DNA of 64,000 nt from a bacterium (GTDB taxonomy: Bacteria > UBP18 > UBA7526), in the NCBI GenBank assembly GCA_030615855.1, contig JAUWYL010000002.1, forward strand, positions 1,526 to 65,525, in the 5' to 3' direction. Below, in pieces: positions 5,119 through 38,012 of the stretch. The first letter of the stretch is position 1; the number at the start of each line of letters is the position of its first letter. A model generated the notes under the pieces. That model ran no database searches. It saw nothing but the letters and a program-made list of their open reading frames with translations, and was not told the DNA's origin. A program made the translations under genes and the position numbers.

Positions 5119-5147
5119 ATGATATACCACAAAAACCCATTTGTCAA
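5119..5147 (-). promoter_or_regulatory. Sigma70-type promoter of mraZ/dcw
   Basis: TTGACA (5147-5142), 17-bp spacer, TATCAT (5124-5119). Confidence 0.75.
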
Positions 5148-5168: not shown

Positions 5169-5200
5169 AAAAAAGAAGGCCCCGAGCAATCGGGGCCTTC
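5169..5200 (-). terminator. Intrinsic terminator of rnpB
   Basis: GAAGGCCCCGA-TTGC-TCGGGGCCTTC then TTTTTT directly after the RNase P RNA 3' end. Confidence 0.88.
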
Positions 5201-5201
5201 T

Positions 5202-5606
5202 GAAGTAGATCTATAAGCCGGGTCCTGTAAACGCTGATTACCGCAGATTTTTAGCGCTGATTACCGCAGATTAAATCCGCGGCCTTCTGCGTATCGATCC
5301 GCGTAAATCCGCGTCTCGATGATCATTTGTCTAGTCCGACCATTACTGGACGGATCAAGCAGCCAACCCGGGAATAATAACGAGACGGGCCGTCTCTCTC
5401 CCTCTATTTGGCCTTGCTCCGCGTAGAGATTGCCTCGTTTCACCCCTCCCCGGCAAAAATCGGGGAGGACTCGTCTCTGTGGCTCTTATCCGTCCGTCCC
5501 TTTTGGGGACGGAGACGGGTGTTACCCGCTACGCTGCCCTGTGGAGCCCGGACTTTCCTTCCGTCCGTCATACTTATGACGGACGGACGATCATCCGATC
5601 TACTTC
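5202..5606 (-). ncRNA. rnpB: RNase P RNA, type A, with an enlarged P19 region
   Basis: P1 pairing GAAGTAGATC/GATCTACTTC, conserved GGAAAGTCCGGGC, GGGTGAAACG, AATCTCTACGCGGAGCAA and 3' ACAGGACCCGGCTTATA; own promoter and terminator. Confidence 0.95.
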
Positions 5607-5612
5607 ATAAAT

Positions 5613-5641
5613 ACTATATCATAAAAAGGAGGATTTGTCAA
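5613..5641 (-). promoter_or_regulatory. Sigma70-type promoter of rnpB
   Basis: TTGACA (5641-5636), 17-bp spacer, TATAGT (5618-5613), 6 nt before the RNA 5' end. Confidence 0.82.
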
Positions 5642-5691
5642 CCCCGCCCCTTTTACTTTGAAGTATTTCTCCGTAGCAGAAAGGGGCGGGG
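5642..5691. repeat. 50-bp inverted-repeat element resembling the ends of the GIY-YIG element
   Basis: CCCCGCCCCTTT...AAAGGGGCGGGG, flanked on both sides by TCAA (5638-5641, 5692-5695). Confidence 0.65.
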
Positions 5692-6315
5692 TCAAATTCC
5701 GAGGTTTATTCCCTTGTTTGCCAATCTATCTGCTCTCTTATTCTTCTCCCGGGCAATATACCTTATATCTACTTTTCTGAAGTTCTTTAAATTCTCTCTC
5801 GCCTTTTGGTAAAAATCTTTTAAAGTCTTATCCTTCACCCGATACTCACCAGCCATTTGCCTTACCAGTAGCTCACAATCGGAATATATGGCCAAGGTTT
5901 CTGCCCCCAGACTCCTTGCTCTCTCCAAGGCGATGAGTAATGCCTGATACTCGGCCACGTTATTCGTCGTCTTCCCGATATACTCACATAGCTCGTCAAC
6001 CAACTTCTTCTTTTCATCATAGATGATGACTCCCACCCCGGCTGGACCAGGGTTTCCCCGCGAGGCCCCGTCGATATAGATGAATAGTCTTCTCTTCAGA
6101 ACAGGCAGAGGAGCAACCTCTCTCTTCATTAAGCCCAGAGCATAGGAGAGGGTGGCCCGAATATCCTCTTCAGTAACTTTGGGGAATTCTTCACATATCT
6201 CCTTGAAAGAAGTGCCACTGGCGAGCAACTCTAAGATGAGTTCACAGGAAATCTTCGTTCCCCTAATATGTGGCTTTTCTCCCAGAACCTTGGGGTCCTT
6301 TATAATTCTACTCAT
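5692..6315 (-). CDS. rnhA: DUF433 domain fused to ribonuclease HI
   Basis: N-terminal MSRIIKDPKVLGEKPHIRGTKISCELILELLASG...EDIRATLSYA (DUF433 pattern); C-terminal IDGASRGNPGPAG, TNNVAEY, YSDCELLV, NKRADRLAN (RNase HI acidic residues). Start moved to ATG 6315, which overlaps the upstream stop (ATGA). Confidence 0.85.
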   Translation of the reverse strand: MSRIIKDPKVLGEKPHIRGTKISCELILELLASGTSFKEICEEFPKVTEEDIRATLSYALGLMKREVAPLPVLKRRLFIYIDGASRGNPGPAGVGVIIYDEKKKLVDELCEYIGKTTNNVAEYQALLIALERARSLGAETLAIYSDCELLVRQMAGEYRVKDKTLKDFYQKARENLKNFRKVDIRYIAREKNKRADRLANKGINLGI

Positions 6316-7019
6316 CCTTTCTTCCAATATAAGATTCTATTGCAGACCTCGCAGGTAACGAACCTGTTGCCTTTCTTTACTTCACTCACTATCTGGGGAG
6401 GAAGGTTCATGTGGCATCCTCCGCAAGAGGAGCCTTCTAAAGGGACGATGGCCAATCCTCCTTTTCCCTGGCGTAGTTTCTCATATCGGGAAAGAGAGCC
6501 AGGACTAACCCCTTTTGCTATCTCTTGGCGGGTAATATTTATCTTGGCAATCTCCTGGTCCAGAACTTTGGTCTCCTGTTTTGCTTTCTCTTCTTCTCTG
6601 GAGAGCTCTTTCTTCTCTTCCTTCAACTCCTCTTCAATCTCTTTAATCTCTTTTATTCTTTCTTCCTCTAACTCCAGGGACTTCAAGATCTCTTCTTCTG
6701 AGGCCTCATTCTTCTCCCTAGTTAGGGCGATCTCCTCTTCCAGAGCAGCATAGGCCTTATTATCCTTAACCTGGTATAACTGTCTCTGATACTTCTTTAG
6801 CTCCATCTCTCGGGCCTCAAGCTCCCTTTCCTCATGCCTTCTTTTCTTTTGTAAATCCCCCAGTTCCCCTTTCGCTTCATGAAGCTTTTGGTTTATCCTT
6901 TCCACCCCTTCTTTAAAGGGAATGAGTCTCTTGGGTAATCCAGCCTTCTTCTCTTCCCTTTCATCGATCTGGCTATCGAGAGTCTGAAGCTGGGCCAAGA
7001 GTTTTAGATCCTCTAACAT
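6312..7019 (-). CDS. Coiled-coil protein with C4 zinc ribbon (DUF164 family)
   Basis: Long coiled coil ending in CGGCHMNLPPQ...CEVCNRILY; usual neighbour of RNase HI and Nif3. Confidence 0.9.
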   Translation of the reverse strand: MLEDLKLLAQLQTLDSQIDEREEKKAGLPKRLIPFKEGVERINQKLHEAKGELGDLQKKRRHEERELEAREMELKKYQRQLYQVKDNKAYAALEEEIALTREKNEASEEEILKSLELEEERIKEIKEIEEELKEEKKELSREEEKAKQETKVLDQEIAKINITRQEIAKGVSPGSLSRYEKLRQGKGGLAIVPLEGSSCGGCHMNLPPQIVSEVKKGNRFVTCEVCNRILYWKKG

Positions 7020-26590: not shown

Positions 26591-26665
26591 GAAAGCCCCG
26601 CACTTTTTTAATATTCATTTCTTTAGGTTGCTACTTTGAATAGATAAAAGGTGCGGGGTTCTTTT
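26591..26665. terminator. Hairpin between convergent genes; arms match the GIY-YIG element ends
   Basis: CCCCGCACTTTTT (26596-26608) ... AAAAGGTGCGGGG (26646-26658), A-rich on the left and T-rich on the right; could act as a bidirectional terminator. Confidence 0.6.
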
Positions 26666-36466: not shown

Positions 36467-37639
36467 TCACCTGGTCTTATGCTTTTTTATAAAGCCAGGT
36501 AAAATTAGCAGCAATAATGTTACAATTGCCATGGATATAACGATGAGTCTGGGCAGATACGAGGTTTTTTCCCTCTTCTCCGGAGCCACTTCAGGAAGTG
36601 CCTTCTCTCTTTTCGGTGCTTTTCCTGCTTGCGGTGCTTCCTTTGGTTGCAGTGCTTCTTCTTTCCCGAACACTTTCGCCCAAACCGGCTTCAAACCAGC
36701 AATAGTGAAATCTAAGGTAACATAATTACCTTTTGTAGTAGTCTTGCTGGTATAATCAATCTTCTCAGCAATAAACTTTCTCTTTATGGCCTCTCCTAAA
36801 AACCGGGCATCGTCATGGATAGCGGGCAGAGCCTCCTCTTTAGTTGCCCGGAATACTATCTTTCCCTTAGCCCGAGCCTCATCTATCAGGTCGAAGGAGA
36901 GTCCAATGGAAACCATGGATTCCGCAGATAGGAAGAGGGTCATGTGCCAATCCTCTTCCCATTCCCGCAAAGTCTTAACGAAGCGGGCTTCTTTATTATT
37001 AACATAGACAAAGCCGTCCCGGGCTTCAATAGCTTTTGTCCTCATTCTAATGAATTCTTTATCTTCTACTATTGAACCGCTCTTGCCTTCTGCCACATCT
37101 ATTGCTTTCTTCACGACCTCGACTCCCGTACCCAAGATGAGCCTATTGCCCAGCCGGGTATAGGCGCTAATCTCTTCCGGATCTCTTGTCTGGCGATAGT
37201 GACTATAGATGATGTTATGTTTCAGATGGGTTGTCTTCACCATCCTCTCCCCGGGCTTCTTGAGGAGGGTATCCAGAGATTTGAGGAAAGCCTCAATCTT
37301 TTGCGGTTGGTCAGGAGGAAATTCGACAACTACAATGTAGTGGGAAATTCCTTCCGCGCTTAAGGGGAACAGGGCAGCTGCTACTTCAATAATGTCCAGT
37401 TGATACATCTCCCCTACTGCTCTCTTATTGACTTCACTTTCTTCACGCATTAATTTTTCTCTTTCCAATTCCATAAGAAAGGATAGCCCAGGATTGGTCT
37501 TAATCTTACCCAATGAAGAGACGACCATTGCCTCCCGGGGAATAAGGTCCTGGGCCCCTTTGCTCTCCACATCTGCTTTCTGTGATAAGCCAAAGATAGT
37601 AGTCCAGATAATCAAAGTAATGATTAGAATCTTCTTCAC
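36467..37639 (-). CDS. Exported protein with C-terminal TM anchor, unknown function
   Basis: Start placed at GTG 37639 (MKKILIITLIIWTTIFGLSQKA, signal-peptide-like); C-terminal LIVISMAIVTLLLLILPGF; partly similar to 38013..38969. Confidence 0.6.
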   Translation of the reverse strand: MKKILIITLIIWTTIFGLSQKADVESKGAQDLIPREAMVVSSLGKIKTNPGLSFLMELEREKLMREESEVNKRAVGEMYQLDIIEVAAALFPLSAEGISHYIVVVEFPPDQPQKIEAFLKSLDTLLKKPGERMVKTTHLKHNIIYSHYRQTRDPEEISAYTRLGNRLILGTGVEVVKKAIDVAEGKSGSIVEDKEFIRMRTKAIEARDGFVYVNNKEARFVKTLREWEEDWHMTLFLSAESMVSIGLSFDLIDEARAKGKIVFRATKEEALPAIHDDARFLGEAIKRKFIAEKIDYTSKTTTKGNYVTLDFTIAGLKPVWAKVFGKEEALQPKEAPQAGKAPKREKALPEVAPEKREKTSYLPRLIVISMAIVTLLLLILPGFIKKHKTR

Positions 37640-38012
37640 CCCGCACCTTTTAACATATTCACCCCGCACTTTTTATATTCCTCTTTTCCCGTGTTCTTGT
37701 CAAAAGTGCGGAGTTCAAACTGTTGTTTATTCTATGTTTTAGCTGTCCGTAGGCTTTACCAAAGTATTTAAGACTTTTTTCTCTTGCTTTAGCATCCTTT
37801 AACAAAAGGAAACTTTCGTAGTAAACTAAAGCCCAAGGTGCATATTTCTTAGTATACCCAACCAATCCTTCGTTATGTTCTTCCAATCTACGCTTAATAT
37901 CATTCGTGTAACCAACGTAAAGTGAAGAATTTTTCTTACTCTTCAAAAGATAGACATGATACATATGTCCCTCTAAGTAAAAGAACCGGACGAATACCAA
38001 AAAGGTGCGGGG
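37639..38012 (-). mobile_element. Putative mini mobile element carrying a GIY-YIG nuclease
   Basis: 13-bp terminal inverted repeats CCCCGCACCTTTT (37639-37651) / AAAAGGTGCGGGG (38000-38012), a second end copy at 37662-37674, and TCA on both sides (37636-37638, 38013-38015). Confidence 0.65.
37659..37964 (-). CDS. Small GIY-YIG nuclease family protein
   Basis: MYHVYLL, LYVG, KRRLEEHN, YTKKYAPWALVYYE, AKAREKSLK; ATG 37964 after GAGGGA. Confidence 0.9.
   Translation of the reverse strand: MYHVYLLKSKKNSSLYVGYTNDIKRRLEEHNEGLVGYTKKYAPWALVYYESFLLLKDAKAREKSLKYFGKAYGQLKHRINNSLNSALLTRTREKRNIKSAG

Follow-up and report, generated by a model that had tools for sequence, protein, structure and literature searches.

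A 50-bp hairpin-ended sequence at the -35 box of rnpB is probably a MITE-like member of a mobile family whose only gene encodes a GIY-YIG nuclease

The 50-bp sequence lying between an RNase H-like gene and the predicted promoter of rnpB is, with a probability that we put at roughly 0.78, a non-autonomous, MITE-like member of a GIY-YIG/Ssn-like family of hairpin-ended mobile elements, the gene-bearing forms of which measure 270-380 bp and encode the nuclease only. It inserted into a TTGA shared by the stop codon of the RNase H-like gene (T-TGA) and the -35 box of rnpB (TTGA-CA), and these 4 bp were duplicated in the process. The window analysed here is a stretch of 64,000 nucleotides, and the features around the junction, in window coordinates, are as follows.

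5198..5606, minus strand: RNase P RNA gene rnpB, class A (RF00010, 210.9 bits, full-length model match)
5613..5618, minus strand: -10 hexamer of rnpB, TATAGT, TG-extended (promoter scan)
5636..5641, minus strand: -35 hexamer of rnpB, TTGACA (promoter scan, 17-nt spacer)
5638..5641, minus strand: copy 1 of the target duplication, TTGA, the first 4 bases of the rnpB -35 box (sequence and promoter scan)
5642..5691, no strand assigned: gene-less hairpin-ended element of 50 bp, "type A", with perfect 12-bp inverted ends and a 26-nt interior
5642..5653, plus strand: left arm CCCCGCCCCTTT (sequence)
5680..5691, plus strand: right arm AAAGGGGCGGGG (sequence)
5692..5695, minus strand: copy 2 of the target duplication, TTGA, in which the RNase H-like gene has its TGA stop (5694..5692; sequence and ORF)
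5692..6327, minus strand: DUF433 plus RNase H-like gene, 211 aa (ORF; PF04255, PF13456 (RVT_3), PF00075 (RNase_H))

On the plus strand, positions 5630-5700 read ggatttg TCAA CCCCGCCCCTTT tactttgaagtatttctccgtagcag AAAGGGGCGGGG TCAA attccg, a direct TCAA repeat (5638-5641 and 5692-5695; TTGA on the minus strand) abutting the element on both sides. Coordinates and sequence thus agree with an earlier note on this DNA, which had placed a 50-bp piece directly after the TGA of an RNase HI gene, with TTGA on both flanks of the minus strand; the gene label is roughly right, the product combining DUF433 with an RNase H-like domain. The 211-aa ORF (5692-6327, minus) closes GGA ATT TGA, with the TGA at 5694..5692, and computed removal of the element and of one TCAA yields ...GGA ATT TGA CAAATCC, in which the stop codon overlaps TTGACA. 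This reproduces the ATT-TGA-CA that had been proposed as the outcome of a deletion, and a natural counterpart, GGT-TGA-CA, exists in a related genome (G004, see below). The element is too short to code for a protein. Folded as single-stranded DNA it reaches -17.1 kcal/mol, where shuffles give -6.5 (z = -5.6), and its 12-mer end motif occurs 6 times in the window for an expectation of 0.73, a count attained in 0 of 100 shuffles.

The predicted promoter of rnpB, TTGACA-17-TATAGT at 5641..5613 (minus), matches at 11 of 12 positions and has its -10 hexamer seven bases before the 5' end of the RNA. Because one TTGA copy still ends the upstream gene while the other begins an intact TTGACA-17-TATAGT, the insertion is silent or nearly silent for the RNase H-like gene and for rnpB, as far as the predicted promoter goes. 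The claim that the duplication spares the adjacent signals was therefore correct, the stop codon and the -35 box keeping one TTGA copy each. A promoter brought in by the element itself is ruled out: the sequence after TTGAC varies among copies, and G004, where the site is empty, has the promoter all the same. Two further observations concern rnpB and its surroundings. Near its 3' end (5234-5305, minus) the gene contains an unaligned block of about 70 nt with repeated AATCTGCGGTAATCAGCG-like units, mostly missing from two related genomes (G001 and G004), pieces of which recur elsewhere in genomes G000-G004. A second near-consensus promoter, TTGACA-17-TATCAT (5119-5147, minus), directly follows the rnpB terminator hairpin (5174-5201).

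We aligned the junction of the present genome (G000) across five other genomes of the same family. In a member of another, sister genus (G004; ...AAAATTGTCAACCTTTTAG...) the insert is absent and TTGA is single, a precise empty site beside the same gene pair; on the coding strand, AAA GGT TGA CAATTT, the stop codon overlaps an intact TTGACA, with TATATT 17 nt further on. A genome of the same genus (G001) carries at the identical position, between TCAA flanks, a different member of 62 bp (CCCCGCACCTTTTCAATATTCA...TGAATGGATAAAAGATGCGGGG), and G003 carries there a degenerate composite member of 131 bp, the three filled genomes (G000, G001 and G003) presenting three different interiors upstream of rnpB. 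In G002, the same 50-bp type sits at another promoter, with arms CCCCGCACC/GGTGCGGGG as compared with CCCCGCCCC/GGGGCGGGG in the present copy. At four more loci (C30:93914, C30:104618, C30:90152 and C30:154760) the present genome is filled and relatives are element-free with a single 4-mer. The earlier note had pointed to the rnhA-rnpB junction of relatives as the place where an ordinary, conserved terminator with no empty allele might be found. The relatives do not have it, and this outcome is excluded because G004 is empty and G001 and G003 are filled by other members. As far as genome comparison can establish it, the hairpin-ended family is mobile and duplicates 4 bp. Same-site turnover between sister species is a point added by the present analysis.

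Scans of metagenomes gave no match to the empty allele and, for the promoter flank, chance matches in unrelated DNA only. At another site, shared by two species of one genus (G000:C30:150310-150427 and locus L076 in G002:C6), a "type B" core lies in opposite orientations, so that the two insertions were independent or the segment between the arms has been inverted.

To place the element in its family, the 1.375-Mb assembly (93.6% complete, 45 contigs; the genomes compared are all MAGs) was scanned for pairs of CCCCGC-type ends, one mismatch being allowed, at most 450 bp apart, which gave 139 candidates. Flanking 4-mers were identical in 57 of the 139 pairs, whereas the 4-mers one step further out agreed in 3 of 139 and 5-mers in 2, so the duplication is exactly 4 bp long. 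The 57 duplications comprise TGAA/TTCA (36), TTGA/TCAA (8), TAAA/TTTA (7), TGAG/CTCA (3), CAAG/CTTG (2) and TTAA (1), and once oriented they give the target (A29/G19)-T55-G39-A47-A52. Listing the elements genome-wide and scoring their flanks, as had been suggested, bears out the suspected preference for TGA, included in 47 of the 57 duplications, and refines it: the unit is 4 bp and not 3, and its contexts are start codons and -35 boxes. A 3-bp TGA duplication is out for the family, only 4-mers matching (57 copies) and 3-mers and 5-mers not; the flanks of the GIY-YIG unit in the window are TCA/TCA only. Nor is the duplicated 4-mer a cleavage site owned by the element, in the style of IS200/IS605, as the subfamily with CCCCGTTAGAGAT ends shows TGAA, TGAG, TAAA and CTTG. 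Nested insertions are common, and in most copies the interiors are unrelated, forming singleton clusters with the arms alone in common. Other members of the family, in the window and, for the last, on contig C30, are:

26596..26658, no strand assigned: 63-bp "type B"-like member without intact duplication (AAAG/TTCT; end-motif scan)
37639..38012, minus strand: GIY-YIG-bearing member of 374 bp, arms CCCCGCACCTTTT, in an ATGA stop/start overlap (sequence, Pfam)
37659..37964, minus strand: GIY-YIG nuclease ORF, 101 aa from ATG (PF01541, E = 7e-16)
37662..37713, minus strand: 52-bp member nested in the GIY-YIG element, TTCA/TTCA duplication (sequence)
C30:56552-56824: second GIY-YIG unit, about 272 bp, arms CCCCGCCCCCATTT, TTGA...TTGACA, nuclease gene at C30:56575-56802 (recognised by family ends)

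The 50-bp element had been described as a MITE-like partner of the GIY-YIG element. This description stands: its ends match both GIY-YIG units, at least 57 copies have a 4-bp duplication and G004 has an empty site, so that terminal inverted repeats, a fixed 4-bp duplication, a single-copy empty site and dispersed copies without coding capacity, four features expected of a MITE, are present. The 50-bp copy has only its 12-bp arms in common with the GIY-YIG units.

The family targets two main kinds of sequence, RTGAA on start codons and TTGAC on -35 boxes. For the first kind, and with context statistics based on crude ORF calls, at least 130 open codons come after 29 of the 39 TGAA/TGAG copies, in the frame that starts with the last base of the element plus TG (RTGAA). 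The rebuilt start is GTG where the element ends in ...GCGGGG and ATG where it ends in ...GCGGGA, the original ATG or GTG remaining in the left copy, and a Shine-Dalgarno-like AAGGAG/AAGGTG is found at the right end of the element, 4-5 nt before the rebuilt start. In 10 of these 29 copies the left TGA also stops an upstream ORF of at least 100 codons (ATGA overlap); among the remaining 10 TGAA/TGAG copies, 5 are nested in other elements. Of the "permissive" TGAA sites, only about 15% coincide with a start as called by the same crude procedure. In uvrC, the start codon is occupied exactly by a 138-bp member (G000:C43:35661-35798) that has a TGAG duplication and contains a nested copy of 52 bp; the element end ...GCGGGA plus TG supplies the ATG of uvrC.

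The second kind of target is that of the present copy. All 8 TTGA copies of the present genome have C as the next base, and 5 of the 8 coincide with the stop codon that closes an ORF at least 200 codons long; if the C30 GIY-YIG unit is counted, 8 of 9 are followed by a -10 hexamer (at least 5 of 6 positions matched, 16-18 nt away), for a background of 4.6% among all TTGAC sites in the genome. In the relatives, which are non-independent and share some orthologous copies, 15 further TTGA-flanked copies were found (0 with the control pattern), with C as the next base in 11 of 15 and such a -10 hexamer in 8 of 15. A copy in G004:C156 has a CTTG duplication, shifted by one base, which likewise spares TTGACA. 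These placement statistics make the 50-bp copy a typical member of the second target class, in which the -35 box belongs to a full sigma-70 promoter and often overlaps the preceding stop codon; stop codons serve as targets chiefly through overlap with a start codon or a -35 box. The -35/stop-codon class of targets is likewise added by the present analysis.

Such exact placement on signals probably results from a mixture of sequence preference of the enzyme and survival of those insertions that rebuild the signal in a very compact genome. We credit the enzyme with a sequence preference because TGAA is also duplicated at nested, presumably neutral sites. Placement on start codons and promoters could nevertheless stem wholly from selection and not from targeting.

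The type A subfamily, of which we gathered 14 copies (the present one and 13 further) from five to six genomes, gives some insight into how the arms may work. Arm positions are paired in 97.6% of cells across the 14 copies, and position 7 co-varies, being A-T in 7 copies, C-G in 4 and T-G in 1. The observed pairing and covariation scores were reached in 0 of 500 shuffles, and slid registers were paired at 41-72% only. This covariation, a further point that the present analysis adds, speaks for an intermediate with paired arms (hairpin or cruciform), or for copying from arm to arm, rather than for simple recognition by a protein of two independent ends. The strand asymmetry of G:T wobbles in the arms gave no readable pattern, the cases being too few. 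Type A is biased towards TTGA (9 of 14 copies, as compared with 8 of 57 in the family at large), implying that the choice of target, or the duplicated bases themselves, are partly inherited within the subfamily. At one locus of G002 (C69:30400-30950; L006/L030), a tRNA gene and a 50-bp type A copy enclose a GIY-YIG gene that belongs to another subfamily; the type A copy is on a TTGACA-17-TATATT promoter, and the adjacent GIY-YIG gene is flanked by GACGGATGG-type repeats, not by CCCCGC ends.

The GIY-YIG nuclease is the sole gene carried by the units that share the ends of the element. The genome has four matches to the GIY-YIG domain, namely uvrC, one larger unrelated protein and two stand-alone genes (77 and 101 aa), and both stand-alone genes are tightly bracketed by family ends. 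Their products are single-domain proteins of 77-101 aa, with 1zg2 and 1ywl (UPF0213 BH0048, EF2693) as nearest PDB entries together with Slx1, and the alignment shows no variation at the catalytic Y, Y, R, H and E residues. The C30 unit occurs at the same site in G000 and G002, and the promoter that adjoins it (G000:C30:56825-56870, TTGACAAGCATCTTTTAATTTGATATACTATTTATGAA) closely resembles that of rnpB (window 5606-5641, TTGACAAATCCTCCTTTTTATGATATAGTATTTATGAA).

The association extends to unrelated genomes. One of them (G012) has a 277-bp unit with CCCAGCACCTC ends, a TGAA duplication and one continuous ORF, the nuclease gene starting at the host ATG in the left copy and stopping at the TGA of the right copy; in another (G015), CCCCGTTAGAGAT ends bracket a homologue, and gene-less copies with CCCCGTTAGAGAT ends are found in the present genome. 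A single-protein search against species-representative genomes gave, as the 15 closest relatives of the nuclease, proteins 45-77% identical to it from Omnitrophota, Planctomycetota, Nitrospirota and CPR MAGs. The majority of the 15 lie within units of 290-380 bp that have (A)[C/T]CCCGCACCTT ends, and several show TGAA or TTGA(CA) duplications. Loci L106-L118 and L146 (Omnitrophota, Planctomycetota and CPR MAGs) encode nucleases 66-77% identical to that of the window and have near-identical ends, a similarity between phyla that, taken at face value, points to a horizontal spread of the element. The idea that the target class is fixed by the nuclease used found no support, relatives of the window nuclease occurring at TGAA and TTGACA sites alike.

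GIY-YIG enzymes are hydrolytic nucleases. We know of no strand-transfer activity in this class, and a hydrolytic nuclease as sole transposase would, to our knowledge, be unprecedented. We would nonetheless suggest that the GIY-YIG nuclease moves gene-less copies in trans, recognising the hairpin or cruciform into which the co-varying, GC-rich arms would fold. It might cut at the foot of the hairpin beside the duplicated bases, by analogy with the action of Ssn enzymes on single-stranded hairpins, and a 4-bp staggered break in the target, followed by host repair or ligation, would then give the duplication. Ssn GIY-YIG nucleases, such as SsnA of Neisseria meningitidis, cleave single-stranded DNA next to the hairpin repeats found on either side of their own genes, at a position a few bases 5' of the hairpin, and affect transformation (Chenal et al. 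2025, PMC11893778). One might speculate further that small GIY-YIG (Ssn/Slx1-like) nucleases are the transposases of an unrecognised class of bacterial transposons, with units of about 270-380 bp that move through hairpins or cruciforms, make 4-bp duplications and are aimed at start codons and -35 boxes, which they rebuild; we hold this broader proposal tentatively, at somewhat less than even odds.

Three other explanations have to be weighed against a mobile element of the GIY-YIG family. The hairpins may be sites of a host-domesticated Ssn-like nuclease, comparable with NTS/SsnA or REP/RAYT, which serve a cellular role, for instance in the control of incoming single-stranded DNA, in structuring the genome or in the stability of RNA, and no longer transpose. 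The cutting of gene-flanking hairpins by Ssn nucleases and their effect on transformation (PMC11893778) speak for this, as do the conservation and covariation of the arms around unrelated interiors and the presence of the C30 GIY-YIG unit at one site in both G000 and G002. Against it, filled and empty alleles, different members at one site, nesting and strict 4-bp duplications indicate continuing insertion, and a domesticated role leaves the arrival of the copies at their sites unexplained. We consider it unlikely as a full account, and it is compatible with our main explanation as an added layer.

It is less probable that the element is a true MITE that owes its movement to a conventional transposase (DDE, HUH or other), now lost or absent from the assembly, the GIY-YIG genes being passengers or of homing type. 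Terminal inverted repeats with a fixed-length duplication are admittedly a hallmark of DDE enzymes, the strand transfer that such movement calls for is not known from GIY-YIG enzymes, and in an assembly of 45 contigs that is 93.6% complete, repeats and IS copies often go unassembled. However, six transposase Pfam families, PF01609 (DDE_Tnp_1), PF00665 (rve), PF01797 (Y1_Tnp), PF13358 (DDE_3), PF01385 (OrfB_IS605) and PF00872 (Transposase_mut), have no match in this 93.6%-complete assembly, and no unit of more than 380 bp bounded by arms and a duplication occurs in the genome. Moreover, the nuclease is the sole cargo between the arms in at least four phyla, and the G012 ORF, which borrows the host ATG and ends at the duplicated TGA, is hard to explain for a passenger.

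Finally, it is very improbable that the sequence, conserved for such a role, serves the RNase H-like gene as an ordinary intrinsic terminator or shields the rnpB promoter as an insulator, the TTGA repeat being coincidental: a strong GC-rich stem does follow the stop codon directly (RNA fold -37 kcal/mol, z = -4.8) and some hairpin is found upstream of rnpB in G000, G001 and G003, but the loop is 26 nt long where an intrinsic terminator has 3-8 nt, TTGACAAATCC and no T-run follows the stem, the terminator scan makes no call and the 4-bp direct repeat is family-wide (57 copies against 3 in the control), so that, with an empty allele in G004, which keeps the gene pair without any hairpin, and differing interiors in the filled relatives, this reading is discarded.

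Whatever the enzyme, mobile DNA can colonise a streamlined genome by inserting into bases shared between signals and duplicating them, and one logic then covers the translation start (RTGAA), the stop/start overlap (ATGA) and the stop/-35 overlap (T-TGA-CA). If the nuclease is the mover, a hydrolytic GIY-YIG enzyme would join the short list of transposase chemistries, and its units would be the smallest self-contained transposons known; the rebuilding of signals would let elements with GIY-YIG transposases fill genomes that have nearly no spare intergenic DNA. There are also consequences for the annotation of uncultured bacteria, as the elements shift starts to GTG, put identical Shine-Dalgarno-bearing hairpins before unrelated genes and precede the promoters of stable RNAs such as rnpB.

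Several known systems resemble the family in part. With piggyBac, a eukaryotic DDE transposase family of several kilobases with a TTAA target and precise excision, it shares the duplication of a 4-bp T..A target and empty sites that restore the single copy exactly, but there is no homology and the analogy is a formal one only. REP/RAYT (REPIN) and IS200/IS605 systems are similar in that hairpin repeats are tied to a small nuclease-type gene that they flank, in the recognition of hairpins and in the selection for arm pairing. These systems use an HUH Y1 transposase and are not known to make a target duplication, whereas here PF01797 and PF01385 had no match in the assembly and a 4-bp duplication is present. 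Bacterial MITEs such as Correia/NEMIS of Neisseria, RUP and ERIC are also short, have terminal inverted repeats, a fixed short duplication and many gene-less copies, lie in intergenic DNA near gene signals and fold into hairpins. They have been traced to, or are assumed to depend on, DDE transposases and have conserved interiors; in our family the only gene is that of a GIY-YIG nuclease, interiors are mostly unrelated, and the fit on start codons and -35 hexamers is base for base.

The closest parallel that we found in the literature is the Ssn study (PMC11893778), and full-text searches gave no account of GIY-YIG elements that combine terminal repeats with target duplications and with targets at start codons or promoters. 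That study noted the IS-like layout of NTS-ssnA-NTS and drew the parallel with REP/RAYT; duplications or MITEs go unmentioned in it. As in the Ssn/SRM system, a single-domain GIY-YIG protein of about 80-100 aa is encoded by a gene that has a GC-rich hairpin repeat on either side, and the same repeats are scattered as many gene-less copies; Ssn proteins, of about 90 aa, are placed in the CDD clade cd10448. NTS-like arms (TGTCATTCCCGCGAAAG) occur at the GIY-YIG loci of homologues in three genomes (G015, G016 and G008). The NTS/SRM motif CGTCATTCCCGCGMAVGCGGGAATCYRG is not matched, however, the arms here being CCCCGCNCCTTT with long interiors, and instead of a compact palindrome of 20-30 nt the arms stand 25-350 bp apart and bound a unit. 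Exact 4-bp duplications, empty alleles and placement on start codons and -35 boxes distinguish our family from what is described in PMC11893778. The hairpin-specific cleavage of single strands by Ssn enzymes reported there provides, at the same time, a biochemical handle on the link between the nuclease and the hairpin-ended copies.
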